Source of the DNA: Candidatus Latescibacterota bacterium
GTDB lineage: Bacteria; Latescibacterota; UBA2968
DNA length: 51,971 bases
Direction: 5' to 3'
NCBI GenBank assembly: GCA_038279365.1
Contig: JAYODI010000034.1
Coordinates: 1-51,971 of the forward strand
A program made the translations under genes and the position numbers. Shown piece after piece: positions 14,226 to 37,578 of this stretch. The notes below the pieces were generated by a model. It did no database searches and was not told where the DNA came from. It was given only the letters and a program-made list of their open reading frames with translations. Each line of letters opens with the position of its first letter. The stretch's first letter is position 1.

Positions 14226-16436
14226 TCAGGTGAATAATTTTTTTATTTCTGGATCGTCCTGCCGTTCGGCCGTGGCTTTTGCTGTGGCCCATGTCGATTC
14301 TTCGGGCGCGTTGGGATCAGCACCTCGGCTGAGGAGGAATTTGACCATTTCAATTTGGCCTTCGCGCACGGCTTCGGCTAAGGTGGTGCCGCCATATTCT
14401 AATTCGATGGCGTCTATGTTTGCACCTGCATCTAAGAGGGCTTCTGCGGTGTCGATTTGGTTTTTGCGCACACACGAATGTAAAAAGGTGCGACCGATCC
14501 AATTGGGTTTGTTGACATCCAAGCCGTGATCAATCAATTTTTGCATGATGGGTTTGGGTGGCACGTTGCCACCATAGATGTTGCCCGGTAAGATTTTAGC
14601 AATGATGTTACTTTGGGTTTCAAGTAAGAGATTGATAATTTCTGGATCTTCTTTACCAAGCATTTCATGGATGATTTGTTGGTCTTGTAAAATAGGATCG
14701 TTGGTTTTGATGGCGTTTTTGAGTTCTTCATCGGAGAAGTCGTAAGATGCTCTGTGTGCACCGTGAGTGATTAGGAGTGCTTCCACGGTTTCGTAGTTGT
14801 TTGGGTTTTTCACTTTGTTGATGTGGAGCACATTGCCACTGGAATCGACGTCGCCATTGGGATTTGCACCTGCTTCGAGGAGCATTTTGACAAGTTCAAC
14901 ATTGTTTTTGGCTGCCGCTTCATGAAGGGCACGACCCCGAGGCGCGAGGTGTTCGGGTTGGTTGGGGTCTGCGCCATGATCAAGCAACAGTTGGACAATT
15001 TGTGTACTGCCTGCTCGCACAGCGTGATAGAGTGGACTTGCCTCCTGATCGTCGAGTTTTTTGGCTGCTTGTGGATCGGCTTTTAACAGGGCGTTTACTT
15101 TTTCGAGGTCGGCTAAAACACACGCGAGACCGAGGGTGATGGTTGCGCCTTTGGCCATTAAATAACCTGTGATGACCCATTGGTTGCGCATGGCTTCTTG
15201 GGGGAGGTCTCTGTTCCAGCGATACCAGTAGTCGCCATTGGAAGACAACATGATGGCTGTTTGACCGTCGGATCGTTTGGCATCAATGGGAACACCCCAT
15301 TCAAGAAAGCGGTCTATAAGGTGGGTTTGTCTTGTGAGGGTTGCCCAATGCAGACCTGTGTTGCCCAATGCATCGGAGGCGGTGGCCAGGTTGGGGTTTT
15401 CAGCAATTAATTTTTCAACGGTTTCTGGATCTCGCGACCGGATGGCATTGCGAACGTGATCAAAGTTGGGGTGGTAATTGTAGCGTTCTTTCAATGTGGC
15501 TTCGATGAGTTTTTTGACGGCTTGATGACCGCGTCGGGTGAGTTCTTCCAATAGTTTTGGCCAGGCGTTGTACAGATAGCGCGATTTACCCAATTCGGCA
15601 CCGTGTTCTAAAATATATTGCACCACATCGGTATGGCCTGCTTTGGCGGCCATGTGAAGGGGGAACTGATACCAATATTGTGCATGAACCAGTGCCGGGT
15701 CGCGATCTACAAGGGTTTGTACGCGTGATAAATCGCCTGCTGCACAGGCATTGAACAATGCCCAGGCATCGTGTCCATTAACCACTTCGGTGCCGTAGAT
15801 GTATTGTTCGGTGTTCATGGAATCGGGTTGTGTGAGTTGGGCAATTCGGTTTTCGAATGTGTTGTTGCGCGAAGGTGCTTGATCTTTGAGGTGATCCATG
15901 TTGTCTAATCCTTCTTTTATGAGCCGCCTTGCCGATCTGAGCCGATTGTTGACGGTATCGGGAGACAGGTCTAAAAATGTGGCAATGTCGGCGTGTGTGT
16001 ATTGTGAGATGTAAAACAGTGTGGTTGCAACGCGCTCTTCTTGTGGAAGTGTGTTTAAGACGCGATAAAGGGCGGCCTTTTCTTCTGTTTTTGCGCGTTT
16101 TTTAATGTCTGTATCGTCGGGCACGTCAAAGGTGTTTTCACTCAGTGATGAGGTGTGTTTACGCATTTTTCGGGTGAAGCGCGTACAACGCGTAAACACC
16201 ATTTGACGAAACCAGCCTGCAAAGGCATTGGGGTTTTGTAAGCGTGGTAAGTTTGTCCACGCGCCCACAAAGGCTTCTTGGGCGGCATCTTCGGCCAAGT
16301 GGAAATCACCGATGATAGAATATGCATATCCAACGGCCATATCTTGGAATTTGTGGACCAAATGGCCAAAGGCTTGGTGATCACCTGTTTGTGCGGCTAT
16401 CACCAAGGTGGGTAAATCCGCCTGTTGAACAGACAT
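14226..16436 (-). CDS. ECF-type sigma-70 factor fused to a long C-terminal ankyrin-repeat array (736 aa)
   Basis: Region 2 is AVGYAYSIIGDFHLAEDAAQEAFVGAW. Region 4 is LFYISQYTHADIATFLDLSPDTVNNRLRSARR. About 550 aa of ankyrin repeats follow. The start is an ATG with the RBS ggag. Confidence 0.85.
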   Translation of the reverse strand: MSVQQADLPTLVIAAQTGDHQAFGHLVHKFQDMAVGYAYSIIGDFHLAEDAAQEAFVGAWTNLPRLQNPNAFAGWFRQMVFTRCTRFTRKMRKHTSSLSENTFDVPDDTDIKKRAKTEEKAALYRVLNTLPQEERVATTLFYISQYTHADIATFLDLSPDTVNNRLRSARRLIKEGLDNMDHLKDQAPSRNNTFENRIAQLTQPDSMNTEQYIYGTEVVNGHDAWALFNACAAGDLSRVQTLVDRDPALVHAQYWYQFPLHMAAKAGHTDVVQYILEHGAELGKSRYLYNAWPKLLEELTRRGHQAVKKLIEATLKERYNYHPNFDHVRNAIRSRDPETVEKLIAENPNLATASDALGNTGLHWATLTRQTHLIDRFLEWGVPIDAKRSDGQTAIMLSSNGDYWYRWNRDLPQEAMRNQWVITGYLMAKGATITLGLACVLADLEKVNALLKADPQAAKKLDDQEASPLYHAVRAGSTQIVQLLLDHGADPNQPEHLAPRGRALHEAAAKNNVELVKMLLEAGANPNGDVDSSGNVLHINKVKNPNNYETVEALLITHGAHRASYDFSDEELKNAIKTNDPILQDQQIIHEMLGKEDPEIINLLLETQSNIIAKILPGNIYGGNVPPKPIMQKLIDHGLDVNKPNWIGRTFLHSCVRKNQIDTAEALLDAGANIDAIELEYGGTTLAEAVREGQIEMVKFLLSRGADPNAPEESTWATAKATAERQDDPEIKKLFT

Positions 16437-19523: not shown

Positions 19524-21212
19524 TTATAAGTAGCGTTGAATGAGGGCTGCGATTTCTGTGTGGCCCTTTTTTTGTGCCCAGGCAAGAGGTGTGGCCCAAT
19601 CTTCTCCGGCAAGTGTGGGATCTGCACCGCGTTCGAGATAGAGGCAAGCCAGGTCGTATTTGCCCCAGCGAACGGCCCAACCCAATGGGGTAGATTGTAA
19701 GAGGTCATCTATGACATTGAGGTCTGCGCCGTGATCACAGAGGATTTCGGCAAAGGTGACACGTTCTTTTTCGGTCATAATGGGTTCGCCCCATACCACA
19801 CCGCAAGCGGCGAGGTCGTGGGCGATGCGATAACCATAACGGCCCACGAGATTGGTGCTGACGCCATGATCGAGGATCATGCGAAAGATTTCGGGATAGA
19901 CTGAGCGATCAAAGTCGCGGTGTTTGCGATGTGGACCGACACGCCACAGGCGAAGGGGTTGTTCGAGCAAGTTGAACCAACGGCTGTCGTCGGGTGCCCA
20001 GTCGAGTTGGCGCAAACACATGCCTACAATGTTGATGTCGCCCCCACATCCTGCAGACCAAAGCAACTGTTTGGCCAGTGAGGGATCGTTTTGGAGGGCA
20101 ACGGCGGCGGCTGAGGTTTCGCCTTCAAGACCGGCGGTGGTGTGGTCGAGTGTGGCCCCGTAGCGAAAGAGCAGGCCTTTCATTTTGTCATCGCGGTTGT
20201 TGTAGGCGGCAGCGATGGGGTTGCCACTGGCATACATGCTGGCATTGGGGTCTGCACCGCTTTTGAGCAACAATTCGGCAATTTCATATTGTGAATTGCC
20301 TGCGGCATGGCCAAGGGGCTGGCCCCAACTGTAGGGTTTGGATTCGTAATGGTGAAGTTGGTGGCGATCATCGGGGTGAAGGCCGAGGTCTAATAACAAG
20401 GTTAGCATTTCGATGTTGTTGTTTTGAACGGCTATTTGGAGCAGGCCATCACGGTCGCTGTCGTTGGATTGGAAACGCTCGGGATGGTTTTGGGCATATT
20501 GTTTGACGAAGGCTTGATCATTTAGAGCAATCGCAGATTCTAAGGAGAGTGTGCATCCGGCTTGGAGAAGTAGGCCCGCACAAATGAGACAGCCTTCGTT
20601 TAGGGGCCTGTTGCGACCCCGCACATTGTGAACGGCTCCGTCGAGGGGCGATTGGCCTTCGGGTATGAGGTGGGTGATGTCGGCACCGCGTTTGAGGAGT
20701 TCTTGCACAAGTTGATAACGGCCTTTTGAGGCGGCGGCGTAGATGACACTGCCGCCGTTTCTGTGACAGGCATCGAGCAGGTCGGGGTTTTGGTCGAGGA
20801 TGGTTAAGGCTTTTTGGTCTTGTGCGTTTTGAACGGCTTCAAAGAGGGCGTCGTTTTCTTCGCTGATGGTGATGTTTGCACAAGCGGCCAGTTTGCGTTT
20901 TTCGTCTTCTTCACGGATGATGTTGACAATGTCGTCATAACCGCGTTCTTGTGCGATGGTGAAGGCGTCTGTGGCATCGCGGTGGGGGTAGATGCCTGAA
21001 GTGTGAATGGCACCCGCTTCCATGAGCACACGCACCGCGTCGGTGTGTTGGTTCATGACGGCGTAGTGAATGGCGCGGTGTTCGTTGTTTTCGGCCATGT
21101 GTACATTGACAAGGTCGGGTTGTGTAGCGAGGATTTCTTGGATTTTATCGACGTTGCCATCTGTGGCGGCTTTGCACAGGTCAGCAACTTTGTAGGTGCC
21201 ATTTGTGTTCAT
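19524..21212 (-). CDS. Ankyrin-repeat protein (562 aa) with no other recognisable domain
   Basis: Canonical ankyrin repeats recur (e.g. TPLGWAVRWGKYDLACLYLERGADPTLAGEDWATPLAWAQKKGHTEIAALI). The RBS aaggag precedes the ATG. Confidence 0.85.
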   Translation of the reverse strand: MNTNGTYKVADLCKAATDGNVDKIQEILATQPDLVNVHMAENNEHRAIHYAVMNQHTDAVRVLMEAGAIHTSGIYPHRDATDAFTIAQERGYDDIVNIIREEDEKRKLAACANITISEENDALFEAVQNAQDQKALTILDQNPDLLDACHRNGGSVIYAAASKGRYQLVQELLKRGADITHLIPEGQSPLDGAVHNVRGRNRPLNEGCLICAGLLLQAGCTLSLESAIALNDQAFVKQYAQNHPERFQSNDSDRDGLLQIAVQNNNIEMLTLLLDLGLHPDDRHQLHHYESKPYSWGQPLGHAAGNSQYEIAELLLKSGADPNASMYASGNPIAAAYNNRDDKMKGLLFRYGATLDHTTAGLEGETSAAAVALQNDPSLAKQLLWSAGCGGDINIVGMCLRQLDWAPDDSRWFNLLEQPLRLWRVGPHRKHRDFDRSVYPEIFRMILDHGVSTNLVGRYGYRIAHDLAACGVVWGEPIMTEKERVTFAEILCDHGADLNVIDDLLQSTPLGWAVRWGKYDLACLYLERGADPTLAGEDWATPLAWAQKKGHTEIAALIQRYL

Positions 21213-30517: not shown

Positions 30518-30615
30518 TATTGGTAAGTGGCAAAAGGTCGCAAATCTTGAATTGTCGATTTAAAATGGCTATACTTATATCATCACATAGACTCTTTATA
30601 ATTAGGAGCAATGGA

Positions 30616-30834
30616 ATGGCAGATACCACACTTGAGCAAGTTGAAGAACTTGTTGCTAAACTTTCTCTTAAAGATCAACAGGCACTTGCGGAGCATTTGA
30701 TTTTACAGCTTAAGAAGAAATCCGACAGCAATGAGTTGCGTCCCTTTGCGCTTTGTAAAGGTGAGTTTGTCGTGCCAGATGATTTTGATGTGCCTTTGCC
30801 TGAAGATATTATAACTGCTTTTGAGGGATCATGA
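30616..30834 (+). CDS. vapB: Type II antitoxin, VapB-like
   Basis: It is 72 aa with the RBS aggag. Its stop overlaps the downstream PIN-toxin start by 4 nt (ATGA). Confidence 0.6.
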   Translation: MADTTLEQVEELVAKLSLKDQQALAEHLILQLKKKSDSNELRPFALCKGEFVVPDDFDVPLPEDIITAFEGS

Positions 30835-31217
30835 ATCTCCTTTTAGATACCCATGTATTTCTGTGGTATATCAGCGGTGACCGTCGGCTTCCTGAGTTGA
30901 TACGGGATCATATTCGCGACCAGAATAATATTGTTTATTTGAGTGTGGTATCTGTTTGGGAAGTTATGATTAAATATCAACTTGGCAAACTACCTCTACC
31001 TGAGTCACCAGAAAGTTATTTGCCATTACAACGAGAAAAACACCAAATTGAGAGTTTAACGCTTGATGAGATGAGTGTTGCCCGCCTATCAGATCTTCCC
31101 AATTATCATCGTGATCCTTTTGACCGTATTTTGATTTGCCAAGCATTGCGGCATGATTTGGTTATTGCAACTGTAGATAGCCAGATGCACAGTTATGCAG
31201 TGCAAGTTTTGTTATAG
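30831..31217 (+). CDS. vapC: PIN-domain toxin VapC
   Basis: It is 128 aa. MNLLLDTHVFLW...D...SVWE...D is PIN-domain-like. Confidence 0.75.
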   Translation: MNLLLDTHVFLWYISGDRRLPELIRDHIRDQNNIVYLSVVSVWEVMIKYQLGKLPLPESPESYLPLQREKHQIESLTLDEMSVARLSDLPNYHRDPFDRILICQALRHDLVIATVDSQMHSYAVQVLL

Positions 31218-31244: not shown

Positions 31245-32372
31245 TTATATATCACGTTTTGCCAATGGTATCCATTGGCTATTTTTTTGCCCAGTATAAA
31301 CCGATTCGGGGCGGATGATGCGGTCTAAGGCGCGTTGTTCGAGGCTGTGTGCAATCCAACCCACGGCGCGACCAATGGCAAATGTGGGTGTGAAGAGATC
31401 TGGGTGTAGACCTAAGCTGTGGAGCAAGAGCGCGGTGTAGAACTCGACATTGGTTTGTAAACGGCGACCGGGTTTAAATTCTTCGAGGAGTTGGATGGCG
31501 GTTTTTTCGACGTGTTGGGCAAAGGTGTAGAAATCGCGGTCAGAATTGTCGGCAAAGAGGGATTCAAGCGCGTTGTATAAAACATCTGCACGAGGATCGC
31601 GTACTTTGTAAATGGCGTGGCCAAAACCCATGAGACGTTCGCCTTTTTCGAGTTTGGCGCGCAAATAGGGTTCGGCGTTTTCGGCTGATTGGATTTCTTG
31701 GAGCATTTGCAAAACGGGACCTGGTGCGCCGCCATGAAGGGGGCCTTTAAGTGCGCCAATGGCACCCACGATGGCTGAGATGAGGTCGGAGCGTGTGGAG
31801 GTGATGACACGTGCGGTGAATGTGGACGCATTCATGCCGTGGTCGGTAATGGTGTTGAGATAGGTGGTTATGGCGCGTGTTTGTGCGGTATTGGGGTCTT
31901 TGCCTGTGAGCATATAAAAGTAGTTGGCCGCGTGGTTCAGATTGGGATTGGGCGCAATGGGTTTTTGGTTGTTGATGAGCCGCCAATAGGTTGCAATGAT
32001 TGTGGGCAAGGAGGCGATGAGCAATTTGGCATCGGACGCATCGTCATGTATGGATGTGAGACTTAAGGTGGCGGTTGCCATGCGCAAGGCGTCGATGACA
32101 GAAACGTTTTGTGAGGCGGCCTCACGTAAGAGAACGATTGTGGCATCGGGTAAAGGTCGATGTGTTTTGAGTGCTTCTGAGAATGATTCTAATTGTGAGT
32201 TTGAGGGCAAGCTGTTGTGCCAAAGCAAATAGGCCATTTCTTCAAATGTGGCACGGGGGGCGATCTCTTCAAGCGGGTACCCTGCAATAATGAGTTCACC
32301 TTTTTCACCATCCACACTGCTTAAGTTGGTTTCTGTGGCAATGACGCCTTTGAGGCCGGGTATGTATGTCAT
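31245..32372 (-). CDS. Citrate-synthase-family protein (citrate or 2-methylcitrate-synthase-like, short type)
   Basis: The motifs GPLHGGA and GFGHAIYKVRDPRA are present. The start was chosen at ATG 32372 (MTYIPGLKG), which lies 12 nt after the upstream methyltransferase stop. Where 'NVDFY' normally carries the catalytic Asp, this protein has NVEFY. Confidence 0.7.
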   Translation of the reverse strand: MTYIPGLKGVIATETNLSSVDGEKGELIIAGYPLEEIAPRATFEEMAYLLWHNSLPSNSQLESFSEALKTHRPLPDATIVLLREAASQNVSVIDALRMATATLSLTSIHDDASDAKLLIASLPTIIATYWRLINNQKPIAPNPNLNHAANYFYMLTGKDPNTAQTRAITTYLNTITDHGMNASTFTARVITSTRSDLISAIVGAIGALKGPLHGGAPGPVLQMLQEIQSAENAEPYLRAKLEKGERLMGFGHAIYKVRDPRADVLYNALESLFADNSDRDFYTFAQHVEKTAIQLLEEFKPGRRLQTNVEFYTALLLHSLGLHPDLFTPTFAIGRAVGWIAHSLEQRALDRIIRPESVYTGQKNSQWIPLAKRDI

Positions 32373-32383
32373 ATATGATTCCT

Positions 32384-33088
32384 TTATTTGATGCCACCGA
32401 ATGCGGCGAAACATCCGTTTTTATGTAAGACCTCGACCTGTTGGAAACCGACTTTGCGTAACAGATCCAATTGGAACATGAGTGGGCGAGGTGTGTCTTC
32501 TTCGGCAATGTAATTGAAGACATGATCGCGATAGGCTTCGTCTTTAAAGTGGGTGAGATAGTCGCCATATTTTTGCCACATGAGACTTTGTATGGCAGGT
32601 GTGGATTGTTCGATGAGGTCAAAGATCCAGAAAGAACCACCCGGTTTGAGTGCGTTGTAAAACTGTGAAAAAACGGCGTGCCATTCACCATCGGTGCGCA
32701 GGTGATGGAGGGTGGATGCGGCCACGATGATGTCGAATGTTTCGGGTTCAAAAGTGAGATCACGCATGTCATTTTGTAAGGGGGTGATGGTGCCTGATGT
32801 GACGTTTGAAATGCGTTCAACGGCACGATTGAGCATGGGCAAGCTTAAATCGACAAGGGTGACATTGAGATTGGGAAGTGATTTTAAAATGGTAAGGGTG
32901 TAATTTCCGGCACCGCATCCGATGTCGAGGATGTGAGTGGCATTGGGATTGGTGACTGCGGCTGTTTGACCGATGAGATTCATGGCAAAAGCGGCGTCAA
33001 TGGTTGATGTTTGCCCTGTTTCGAGGTTGGAGAAACGTTCGACATCGTTGTCGAAACGTTGGCGTATTTGTGTGACGGTGGATTTCAT
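32384..33088 (-). CDS. Class I SAM-dependent methyltransferase, CmoA-like
   Basis: The SAM motif I is ILDIGCGAGNY. The overall organisation resembles CmoA-family enzymes. Confidence 0.65.
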   Translation of the reverse strand: MKSTVTQIRQRFDNDVERFSNLETGQTSTIDAAFAMNLIGQTAAVTNPNATHILDIGCGAGNYTLTILKSLPNLNVTLVDLSLPMLNRAVERISNVTSGTITPLQNDMRDLTFEPETFDIIVAASTLHHLRTDGEWHAVFSQFYNALKPGGSFWIFDLIEQSTPAIQSLMWQKYGDYLTHFKDEAYRDHVFNYIAEEDTPRPLMFQLDLLRKVGFQQVEVLHKNGCFAAFGGIK

Positions 33089-33184
33089 GGTGTCCTTTTA
33101 AAAATGCTGTGTGGCGATTGATTGTGCTGGGAGATGTTATTTAAGGTCTTGACCTTTGGTTTAAAAATAGGTTGATTTTATATG

Positions 33185-33215
33185 TTGTCAATCTTGATTT
33201 TAAAATCAATATATT
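33185..33215 (+). promoter_or_regulatory. Candidate MerR-type promoter/operator: -35 TTGTCA, a 19-bp spacer containing the perfect palindrome TTGATTTTAAAATCAA, and -10 TATATT
   Basis: Read directly: ttgtca|atcTTGATTTTAAAATCAA|tatatt|gagggctacATG. The sequence lies immediately upstream of the HTH-citrate-synthase-like gene. Confidence 0.45.
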
Positions 33216-33224
33216 GAGGGCTAC

Positions 33225-34445
33225 ATGATAAAAAAATCACGCTATTTAACGGCCAAAGAAGCGGCTGATGCATTGGATATTAGCTTATCGACGTTATATG
33301 CTTATGTAAGTCGCGGGTTGATTCGGTCGGAGGCGGGGGTGGGGAGTAAGCGAGATCGGTTGTATTATGCGGAAGATGTGAAACAGTTGCAAAACCGGAA
33401 AGAAGCGCGTCGAAACCCAGAACGGGTGGCCGAAAAAGCCTTGCGTGCGGGTGCACCTGTTTTAGAGTCGGCCATTACATTGATTAAAGATGATTGTGTG
33501 TATTATCGGGGTCAAAATACATTGCACTTGGCCACATCGGAGTCGATTGAGCGTGTGGCGGCGTTGATTTGGACGGGTGACTTGAATGCGGATATACCGA
33601 GTTTAAAAAGCCCGGATATGAAGTTGTCTGATCGTGTGCAGGTGGTTTTGGAGGGTGTGCAAACACTAAAACCCGTTGAGCGATTTATGGCTGTATTGCC
33701 TGTGGCTGGGGCTGAAGATTTGGCGGCATATGATTTGCGCACGGAGGCTGTGATACAAACGGGCGGACGCATATTACGTTTGCTGGTGCAGGTTGCCACA
33801 CAAGGTCAAATGAGCAACAGCATTGCCCAAACGCTTCAGCAAGCCTGGGTGCCCAATTTGCCCGAAGCGGTTGATTTGATCAACATGGTTTTGATTTTGT
33901 ATGCCGATCATGAATTGAATACATCGGCATTTACGGCGCGGTGTGCGGCATCGGCAGGTGCAACACCTTATGGTGCTGTGTGTGCGGGGTTGGCAGCTTT
34001 GCAGGGGTATAAACACGGTGCGGCCAGTGAGCGCACAGAGTTGTTGTTTCGCGAGGCGGAGATGCGCGGTGATGTTGAGCAAACGGTGGTGGATCGGTTG
34101 CGCTTGGGTGAGCAGATTTCGGGGTTTGGCCATGCGGTGTATCGCGATGTGGACCCACGTGCCAAGGTGTTGTTGGATTGTATGGCACAACGGTTTCCTG
34201 ATTCACCTCATTTGGCATTGGCCCATGAGATTATAGATGTAACCCAGCGATTGACCACGGTGCATTATAACATTGATTTGGCATTGACCACTTTGGTGCG
34301 TGTGTTGGGTTTGCCAGATGGCAGTGCAATGGCGTTGTTTGCGCTTGGGCGGGTGGCGGGTTGGATTGGACATGCGATTGAGCAATATGAATTGGATCAG
34401 TTGATTCGGCCACGGGCGCGATATGTGGGGCTACAACCGACTTAA
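33225..34445 (+). CDS. Fusion of an N-terminal HTH (excisionase/MerR-superfamily-like) domain with a citrate-synthase-like domain
   Basis: The N-terminus is LTAKEAADALDISLSTLYAYVSRGLIRS. The C-terminal ~330 aa carry GFGHAVYRDVDPRAKV and NIDLAL (Asp retained) citrate-synthase motifs. The RBS is gaggg. Confidence 0.7.
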   Translation: MIKKSRYLTAKEAADALDISLSTLYAYVSRGLIRSEAGVGSKRDRLYYAEDVKQLQNRKEARRNPERVAEKALRAGAPVLESAITLIKDDCVYYRGQNTLHLATSESIERVAALIWTGDLNADIPSLKSPDMKLSDRVQVVLEGVQTLKPVERFMAVLPVAGAEDLAAYDLRTEAVIQTGGRILRLLVQVATQGQMSNSIAQTLQQAWVPNLPEAVDLINMVLILYADHELNTSAFTARCAASAGATPYGAVCAGLAALQGYKHGAASERTELLFREAEMRGDVEQTVVDRLRLGEQISGFGHAVYRDVDPRAKVLLDCMAQRFPDSPHLALAHEIIDVTQRLTTVHYNIDLALTTLVRVLGLPDGSAMALFALGRVAGWIGHAIEQYELDQLIRPRARYVGLQPT

Positions 34446-36568: not shown

Positions 36569-36909
36569 CATAAAAACTCCCTTGGTGCAAGATTCCAAAA
36601 CGGATGATATTGATTTAAAATGACTTCGGTTATGATCCGACCAACCGCACCGGAATAAATTAGCTTCGCTGAACGTGCGTTTCCAATGCTTTGATAGAGA
36701 AAGCCCTACGGACTCAAGGTCAAAAACCCAATTTAATCTATCGCTTGTTGATTTAAACAAGTCTCGTGATTATGCATGACGCGGTTGTGATGGAAAAAGT
36801 TTCTTCAACTTAGTCATTTTTGCAATAAAGTCAAATGTGAAGGATTCGTTTTTCTGGACAGAGGGTGCAGATTGGCTTATTATTTGTCATTCTTATTTTG
36901 GAGGACAAT

Positions 36910-37578
36910 ATGCGCGTTTTAATGGCTGAAGATGATATTTCTTCCCGCGAGGTTTTGCAGCTCAATTTGGAAGCTTGGGGTTATGAACCTGTGGTTTGCA
37001 AAAATGGAGCCGAAGCATGGGAAGCGTTTCAACGACCCGATGCCCCTCAACTGGCTGTTTTGGATTGGATGATGCCTGAGATGAGTGGGGTGGAGGTGTG
37101 TACGCGGGTGCGTGGGTTGTCCAAGGGACAGGGGCGTTTTGCATATATTATTTTGTTAACGGCAAAAAGCCAACGTGAAGATTTGCTTAAAGGCTTAGAA
37201 TCGGGGGCGGATGATTATGTGACCAAACCCTTTGATCGGCAAGAGTTGCGGGCACGCATTCGGGTGGGGGCTCGGGTGGTGGGGTTGCAAAATCAGCTTA
37301 GAGAAGCCGAACAGTTGCGTGTGTTGGCCGAAACGGCGGGTGCTGCTGCGCATGAGATCAATCAACCCTTGACGGTTTTGATGGGTAAGTTGGAATTGCT
37401 CATGGAGCGCATGTCTCAGGAATCTGATCATCGAGAGGTCATTAAATCGGTTTATGGGTCGGCAGAGCGGATTGCTGATATTGTGAAGAATATGGGTGAG
37501 ATGCGTGCTTATGTGACAAAGCCCTATGTGGAAGGGCTTGATATTGTTGATTTTAGTGCGTCGGCAGATAAAGAATGA
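36910..37578 (+). CDS. Response-regulator receiver domain fused to a histidine-kinase DHp (HisKA) domain, with no HATPase_c domain
   Basis: The REC domain is MAEDDISSREVLQLNLEAWGYEP...AVLDWMMP...TAKS...DYVTKPF. The C-terminus has an H-box (AAHEINQPLTVLMGKLELL). The protein ends ~60 aa after the H-box, which leaves no room for G1/G2 ATP-binding boxes. The RBS ggagga is present. Confidence 0.7.
   Translation: MRVLMAEDDISSREVLQLNLEAWGYEPVVCKNGAEAWEAFQRPDAPQLAVLDWMMPEMSGVEVCTRVRGLSKGQGRFAYIILLTAKSQREDLLKGLESGADDYVTKPFDRQELRARIRVGARVVGLQNQLREAEQLRVLAETAGAAAHEINQPLTVLMGKLELLMERMSQESDHREVIKSVYGSAERIADIVKNMGEMRAYVTKPYVEGLDIVDFSASADKE

Follow-up and report, generated by a model that had tools for sequence, protein, structure and literature searches.

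A helix-turn-helix–citrate-synthase fusion protein as a probable regulator of citrate synthase genes, and the conserved operator predicted beside its gene

Entry into the citric acid cycle is catalyzed by citrate synthase, yet to our knowledge transcriptional control of this enzyme has been described for only a few model bacteria, all of which use unrelated regulators. In Bacillus subtilis the gene for the LysR regulator CitR is divergent from citA, which encodes the minor citrate synthase. Regulators built from enzyme folds are known elsewhere: GabR/MocR proteins join a winged helix-turn-helix (HTH) to an aminotransferase-fold sensor and control a divergent aminotransferase gene, GabR binding to direct repeats, and PutA, BirA and NadR carry an N-terminal DNA-binding domain on an enzyme fold and regulate the genes of their own pathways, with PutA acting in the divergent putA–putP intergenic region. 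Such fusions are trigger enzymes, a concept used in PMC7083601. Here, we analyze a fusion of this general design in a 51,971-nucleotide stretch of DNA from a Candidatus Latescibacterota bacterium (assembly GCA_038279365.1, contig JAYODI010000034.1, positions 1 to 51,971), referred to throughout as the window. The protein, HTH-CS (406 aa; 33225..34445, + strand), consists of an N-terminal HTH and a citrate-synthase-like domain, and its gene is divergent from an operon on the − strand that comprises a class-I S-adenosylmethionine (SAM) methyltransferase gene (32384..33088) followed by a second citrate synthase gene, CS2 (31245..32372, 375 aa). The comparisons described below indicate that HTH-CS is probably a one-component transcription factor that controls citrate synthase genes and senses through a paralogue of citrate synthase, ligand-relieved repression of both divergent promoters being the favored mode of action.

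An earlier, sequence-only reading of the window had described the same genes, a palindrome between them and the hexamers TTGTCA and TATATT, and all of these coordinates proved exact when the sequence was re-read. It had proposed a domain search for HTH_17/MerR plus Citrate_synt, in which all three Pfam models matched, HTH_17 at residues 7–58 (30.6 bits, cut-off 27), MerR_1 only barely above its threshold (21.8, cut-off 21.6) and Citrate_synt as detailed below. In the AlphaFold (AF2) model of HTH-CS, built on 47 homologues (predicted local distance difference test score, pLDDT, of 87.6), residues 7–74 (33243..33446, + strand) form a winged helix of beta-alpha-alpha-beta-beta-alpha-alpha topology, and residues 73–79 form a low-confidence, flexible linker that leads into an all-helical citrate-synthase fold. 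When the N-terminal domain was modeled alone, the best Foldseek matches were the HiNmlR and SoxR DNA complexes, RacA, mycobacteriophage Xis, BldC, CadR and BmrR, the MerR-family proteins at the top of this list (HiNmlR, SoxR, CadR and BmrR) matching with a probability of 1.0, and SoxR was the first match when the family profile was compared with the PDB (E 0.01). These results bear out the assignment of the N-terminus to the MerR/excisionase superfamily. The alignment of the 47 homologues, with a mean column identity of 59%, further shows little or no variation at any position of the recognition helix TLYAYVSRG, with Y25, Y27, V28, S29, R30 and G31 strictly invariant. The long antiparallel coiled-coil helix through which true MerR proteins dimerize was not found in the AF2 model, in which helices 49–63 and 65–74 run into the linker and then into the citrate-synthase fold. 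Because the coiled coil is missing, and because the long-spacer promoter discussed below is not conserved, HTH-CS would not count as a strict member of the MerR family.

The remainder of the protein (residues 76–403; 33450..34433, + strand) is a citrate-synthase-like domain with a predicted role as sensor and possibly as catalyst. The Citrate_synt profile aligns with residues 76–397 at 215 bits over positions 4–357 of 357, and 84 citrate synthases in the PDB match HTH-CS at E ≤ 1e-3, the best being 2p2w (E 2e-32). The catalytic motifs DHELN (H229), KHG (H264), GFGH (H303), DPR (R312), NIDL (D351), GRVAGW (R376) and IRPR (R395/R397) are all present, and we take their conserved residues to be the counterparts of His238, His274, His320, Arg329, Asp375, Arg401 and Arg421' in the pig enzyme. 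Across the 47 homologues D228-H229-E230, H264-G265, D310-P311-R312, R376 and R395-P396-R397 are invariant, H303 is retained in 45 and D351 in 46. The domain is therefore complete and keeps its His-His-Asp residues, as the sequence-only reading had it, and the conservation of both ligand-binding and catalytic residues places the ligand pocket under selection. HTH-CS falls below the cut-off of all 22 NCBIfam citrate-synthase and citryl-CoA-lyase models (best TIGR01800, 166.9 bits against 421), and the sequence GPLHGGA, invariant in the CS2 sequences examined, becomes G-x-K-H-G in HTH-CS, with a family-specific Lys beside the catalytic His. Judged by these scores, HTH-CS belongs to no curated citrate-synthase subfamily.

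The architecture is widespread. At least 718 clusters at 50% identity match the first 105 residues of HTH-CS (which span the HTH and the linker and reach into the citrate-synthase domain) at E ≤ 1e-10, and the combination of HTH and citrate synthase is maintained in the best 120 homologues, although members of the family are named 'citrate synthase family protein' by NCBI. Eighty genome loci that encode relatives with 48–63% identity, 843 kb in total, were fetched from at least eight phyla, with sources in Latescibacterota, Gemmatimonadota, Chloroflexota, Actinomycetota (Rubrobacter, Thermoleophilia), Acidobacteriota, Binatia and Verrucomicrobiia and in one deltaproteobacterial metagenome-assembled genome. 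A partial protein with 100% identity to HTH-CS and a locus with 86% identity are both labeled Latescibacterota. No publication on an HTH–citrate-synthase fusion family was found in full-text literature searches, in keeping with the earlier remark that such fusions are largely uncharacterized. From sequence alone, the family apparently constitutes a widespread and undescribed group of transcription factors for citrate synthase genes that possesses a defined operator.

The predicted operator is the perfect 16-bp palindrome TTGATTTTAAAATCAA (33194..33209), which lies between the divergent genes. It is the sole perfect palindrome of at least 16 bp in the 52-kb window, but as 46% of shuffled windows contain one or more, the palindrome was rejected as evidence by itself and its significance rests on conservation in other genomes. 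The family consensus, TTGATT-N4-AATCAA (at most one mismatch), stands upstream of the orthologous HTH-CS gene in 70 of 79 loci, and was found nowhere else in the 843 kb of fetched loci save for one tandem second copy in locus L036. As the window likewise holds no further copies, the regulon looks local. The flanks are conserved too, which extends the consensus to atat.TTgTCAAtaTTGATT.a.aaATCAATatat, and the centers of the two half-sites are ~11 bp apart. Across the loci, operator and start codon are separated by anything from 2 to ~300 nt, which fits a promoter element followed by a 5' untranslated region of variable length. The motif still adjoins the HTH-CS gene in two loci (L024 and L046) where no citrate synthase partner was found nearby. 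With these data the palindrome singled out in the sequence-only reading can be regarded as a real, conserved predicted operator that overlaps the promoter region of the regulator itself. The window also contains, read from the sequence, an extra copy of the half-site, TTGATTTTA (33172..33180, + strand), 22 bp upstream of the left half-site of the operator; it is not conserved at the equivalent position in the other loci, and other clades hold different extra half-sites, such as TTGACAtatTGTCAA. Separately, the leader between operator and start codon consists in part of 3–5 tandem copies of 10–17-nt units in L008, L010, L011, L012 and L030 (e.g. CCCACAACGGGCCGTAA in L008 and GATGTGCAGG in L030).

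The gene on the other side of the operator is, in most loci, a citrate synthase gene. A divergent CS2 accompanies HTH-CS in ~60 of 79 genome loci: a CitA-like CS2 is the direct partner in ~48 of them, typically with 70–200 bp between the genes, leuB precedes CS2 in nine, and a methyltransferase precedes it in three and in the window. In the window, CS2 is a canonical, CitA-like enzyme of type II: Citrate_synt gives it 396 bits and NF009005 ('citrate synthase') a score of 355 (cut-off 332), and its best match among solved structures is B. subtilis CitA (2c6x, E 3e-100). In seven loci the divergent partner is instead a homocitrate-synthase-like enzyme of the HMGL family, with close homologues (76–98% identity) that carry the name citrate (Re)-synthase from the Joint Genome Institute (JGI). 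A second homocitrate-synthase-like clade, ~39% identical to the JGI-named one, is divergent from HTH-CS in L153, L095, L175 and other metagenome contigs. The partners of both clades score below every NCBIfam cut-off for homocitrate, isopropylmalate and citramalate synthases. We know of no reaction other than citrate synthesis that is common to the two partner enzyme folds, and as partners of two unrelated folds share only this reaction, citrate synthesis is the likely regulated function.

Three further observations concern these partner genes. In the window and in 53 related loci, CS2 has Glu (TNVEFY) at the position of the canonical catalytic Asp, as does B. subtilis CitA, whereas the regulator paralogue HTH-CS retains Asp there. 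In nine loci from Gemmatimonadota and Latescibacterota (L003–L008 and L010–L012), the operator and CS2 are separated by leuB (TIGR00169, 423 bits, cut-off 353), which is located ~150–1300 bp upstream of HTH-CS and would share a transcript with CS2. In L009 (5547..5846) and L054 (5602..5868) only fragments of CS2 (~90–100 residues) are found beside the operator, perhaps as pseudogene remnants or assembly artifacts.

The methyltransferase shows a different distribution, occupying the divergent position only in the window and in L028, L031, L042, L146, L147 and L170, which marks it as an apparently occasional passenger and not a conserved part of the system. Its identity to the copy in the window is 68–71% in L028, L031 and L042 (Anaerolineales, Caldilineaceae), 70% in contigs L146 and L170 and 90% in L147, while its neighbors are less conserved (62–63% for CS2 and 51–54% for HTH-CS), a pattern that suggests transfer as a cassette together with strong constraint. 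The protein matches Methyltransf_25/11/12 but reaches no NCBIfam cut-off, and its best relatives in the PDB are unassigned methyltransferases; its likeness to trans-aconitate methyltransferase is weak (40 bits against a cut-off of 320). The 11-nt gap between the methyltransferase gene and CS2 contains an AGGA Shine-Dalgarno sequence. The earlier proposal that the divergent operon may be a regulatory target is strongly supported, as its citrate synthase gene is the conserved partner across phyla and a near-consensus divergent promoter abuts the operator.

The association between operator and citrate synthase was also approached from the DNA alone, by scanning metagenome contigs for the exact 23-base pattern TTGTCAATNTTGATTNNNNAATCAATAT, which returned at least 120 contigs. 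Among the matches listed, an HTH-CS gene starts within 450 bp to the right of the motif in 93 of the 109 contigs with at least 250 bp of sequence on that side, and an expected partner lies to its left in 95 of the 101 contigs with at least 400 bp there (CS2 in 73, a homocitrate-synthase-like gene in 19 and a methyltransferase in three). In ~10 of the contigs listed the operator precedes a CS2 or Re-citrate-synthase-like gene with an unrelated gene (e.g. NUDIX-like) on the opposite side. As no HTH-CS gene adjoins the operator in these cases, the operator belongs to the citrate synthase promoter, and the regulator would have to act there in trans.

The candidate promoter of the methyltransferase–CS2 operon, P(−), consists of a −35 element TTGACA (33191..33186, − strand), a 16-bp spacer and a −10 element TATTTT (33169..33164), and with 10 of 12 positions it is the best sigma-70-like match in the intergenic region of the window; the extra half-site described above lies inside its spacer. 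In the 71 aligned loci, minus-strand TTGA[CT]A occupies the position of this −35 element in 61, and at a distance of 17 bp a −10 element with A2 and T6 is present in 42 and the full TAnnnT in 33 (1.3% at random positions). The target promoter, the best conserved of the candidates, is therefore TTGACA-17-TAnnnT, with the operator upstream of its −35 element; in the window the operator starts 2 bp from that element and is centered at ~−45.5 from the inferred start of P(−). On the other strand, the candidate promoter of the regulator, P(+), was read from the sequence as TTGTCA (33185..33190, + strand), a 19-bp spacer (33191..33209) that holds the operator, and TATATT (33210..33215). The −35 element of P(−) is the reverse complement of this TTGTCA shifted by one base (33186..33191 versus 33185..33190), so that P(−) and P(+) point away from each other and their −35 hexamers overlap. 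A weaker alternative for the regulator, TTTATA-18-TAAAAT (33177..33206), overlaps the operator and would give a 12-nt leader containing GAGGG. In every reading the operator overlaps the predicted core promoter of the regulator. A separate 14-bp palindrome, AAGGTCTTGACCTT (33143..33156), at ~+1 to +14 of the predicted P(−) transcript, could be the site of another regulator.

Together, these features suggest the following mechanism, in which dimer binding, the sign of regulation and the identity of the ligand are all inferred from sequence. Citrate synthases are obligate dimers; HTH-CS would accordingly dimerize through its citrate-synthase domain, so that two winged HTHs would meet the half-sites of TTGATT-N4-AATCAA, which are spaced by roughly one turn of the DNA helix. 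From its position at the junction of the back-to-back promoters, one leading into the methyltransferase–CS2 operon and the other, the core promoter of the regulator, overlapping the operator, bound HTH-CS would hinder RNA polymerase on both sides. Repression is the most likely outcome because the target promoter is near consensus and the operator touches its −35 element. Ligand binding to the citrate-synthase domain would then drive its open-to-closed domain movement, alter the geometry of the HTHs and relieve the repression. The likeliest ligands would be oxaloacetate with or without acetyl-CoA, or else citrate: induction by oxaloacetate with or without acetyl-CoA would offer the simplest physiology, with citrate synthase made when its substrates accumulate, and citrate as a co-repressor would be equally compatible with the sequence.

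Several observations weigh against this proposal or parts of it. The strongly conserved TCAAT beside the operator could be a third half-site instead of, or in addition to, a −35 element. L047, L057 and L062, from a small Anaerolineae and related subclade, lack the palindrome and contain direct TTGATT repeats ~11 bp apart in its place; their recognition helix is the same as in the rest of the family, which suggests a different binding arrangement, possibly similar to that of BldC on direct repeats. Conservation of the catalytic triad would be expected of an active enzyme no less than of a pure sensor. For the homocitrate-synthase-like partners, the name Re-citrate synthase was assigned automatically by JGI. 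MerR-superfamily proteins such as TnrA can activate from positions near −45.5, so that the position of the operator center can be compatible with activation, and the promoter of the regulator itself has a MerR-like 19-bp geometry in the window.

Activation of the citrate synthase promoter is, on balance, an unlikely alternative. According to this explanation HTH-CS, bound at ~−45.5, would recruit RNA polymerase to P(−) in the manner of TnrA near −50 while repressing its own promoter. It would account for the position of the operator, which is immediately upstream of the P(−) −35 element in every locus and never on the side of the target gene, and for operators that precede a CS2 or Re-citrate-synthase-like gene even when the regulator gene is elsewhere. 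However, a near-consensus −35 element with an optimal 17-bp spacer would be unusual for an activator-dependent promoter, and the extended operator touches the −35 hexamer, both of which argue for repression by HTH-CS.

It is conceivable, though we again hold it to be unlikely, that HTH-CS is both regulator and active trigger enzyme, in which turnover of oxaloacetate and acetyl-CoA drives an open/closed cycle of the dimer and so sets how well the HTHs fit the operator. In this way the cell would sense the supply of substrate, or the flux, where the citric acid cycle begins, and would tune expression of its main citrate synthase, of the Si or the Re type, through one ancient operator common to at least eight phyla, possibly including Streptomyces.

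A classical MerR-type activator is a doubtful explanation. Here, the dimer would sit in the 19-bp spacer of TTGTCA-N19-TATATT, a ligand would cause it to untwist the DNA and switch on its own gene, and any effect on the divergent operon would be indirect. The window has exactly this geometry, the DNA-binding domain of HTH-CS is of the MerR type, and promoters with 19–20-bp spacers are those on which MerR regulators act (PMC8113463). The sequence-only reading had taken the dyad inside a 19-bp spacer for the MerR-family signature and expected autoregulation. Although the spacer and its dyad are present in the window, TTGTCA-N19-TAnnnT recurs in register in only 11 of 71 orthologous loci, whereas 36 of 71 have a promoter of normal 16–18-bp spacing with the left half-site of the operator, TTGATT, as its −35 element and TAnnnT as its −10 element, an arrangement absent from the window. 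The conserved T-A-T after the operator mirrors the A-T-A before it and may be an extension of the operator rather than part of a −10 element, and in the conserved P(−) the spacer measures 17 bp and contains no dyad. The ATG at 33225 is just 9 nt past TATATT, with GAGGG (33216..33220) between them, and a start from this −10 element would therefore force a leaderless or nearly leaderless mRNA. No coiled-coil helix follows alpha-4 in the AF2 model. The long spacer is, at best, a feature local to this window.

Very improbable is the explanation that HTH-CS functions chiefly in catalysis, as a divergent synthase of citrate or acyl-citrate whose HTH serves only autoregulation or some other DNA-linked role and whose neighboring citrate synthase is an independent paralogue. 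The complete fold and the conservation of the catalytic triad and oxaloacetate-binding arginines are what such an enzyme would be expected to retain, but one and the same operator accompanies partners of two unrelated citrate-synthase folds, operators precede citrate synthase genes that have no adjoining HTH-CS gene, and the change from GPLHGGA to G-x-K-H-G accompanies scores far under all citrate-synthase family cut-offs. Finally, binding of HTH-CS to the motif is deduced from sequence, which leaves room for another, unseen regulator and a merely positional association, but this is the least probable explanation of all and only a slight chance, as the motif and the invariant recognition helix co-occur in at least eight phyla whose intergenic regions are otherwise unconserved outside the promoter elements, the motif persists beside HTH-CS where no citrate synthase partner is near, and the distance between the half-sites is one that a dimer bearing MerR-type HTHs could span.

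A mobile-element interpretation of the 'excisionase' HTH was rejected: the window contains neither tRNA genes nor an integrase, and both the operator and the partner gene are conserved parts of the chromosome. A scan for terminators around the genes gave a count no higher than in shuffled sequences. A small open reading frame and an overlapping PIN-domain gene (30613..31217, + strand), resembling a VapBC toxin–antitoxin pair, are convergent with the end of CS2. A 736-aa protein (14226..16436, − strand) combines regions 2 and 4 of an extracytoplasmic-function (ECF)-type sigma factor (residues 26–171) with a long C-terminal array of ankyrin repeats, an unusual fusion, and a second ankyrin protein of 562 aa (19524..21212, − strand) consists entirely of ankyrin repeats. 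A 237-aa protein (36865..37578, + strand) contains receiver and HisKA domains, and an ATPase domain was not detected in it.

If HTH-CS acts as proposed, a large family appears to control citrate synthase in many poorly studied phyla. Its sensor would be a paralogue of the enzyme under control, and its operator is almost the same from phylum to phylum. The annotation 'citrate synthase family protein', which inflates the number of citrate synthases counted in genomes, would be corrected, and the view that the homocitrate-synthase-like partners are Re-citrate synthases would gain support. The family would further provide a ready-made operator–regulator pair for experiments and for biosensor design, and a clear-cut example of how an enzyme fold can come to serve the allosteric control of DNA binding. 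One instance may already be in the literature: in Streptomyces coelicolor, SCO5831 (citA3) and SCO5832 (citA4) are two divergent 'putative citrate synthases' with a common intergenic region, which were treated as enzymes in a study of MtrA binding (PMC12323332). To judge from this description, they may represent the same module, unrecognized.

Comparison with the described systems places HTH-CS between several of them. With the MerR family (MerR, SoxR, CueR, BmrR and HiNmlR) it shares the N-terminal winged-HTH fold and its sequence pattern, a palindromic operator over a promoter, regulator and target genes that diverge from overlapping promoters and, in the window, a dyad within a 19-bp spacer. 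It differs in lacking the long coiled coil, in having as its effector domain a whole 330-residue citrate-synthase fold, which presumably provides dimerization, and in a conserved target promoter with a 17-bp spacer and the operator upstream of its −35 element, the 19-bp register not being conserved. CitR and citA resemble the present pair in the class of target, CS2 being nearest to CitA and sharing its Glu in place of the catalytic Asp, and in the divergent layout, but CitR is an unrelated LysR regulator. HTH-CS has two features of an enzyme-derived one-component regulator, namely a single-polypeptide fusion and a specific predicted operator beside its own gene and those of the cognate pathway; in PutA, BirA and NadR, however, the regulator is itself the pathway enzyme, whereas here the predicted target is a separate catalytic paralogue or an unrelated Re-type enzyme. 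By analogy of logic the closest system would be GabR/MocR, in which an enzyme-fold sensor likewise controls a divergent target enzyme of the same superfamily, although DNA binding there is of the GntR type rather than the MerR type, the enzyme fold is another one, and it is HTH-CS that fully retains the catalytic residues.

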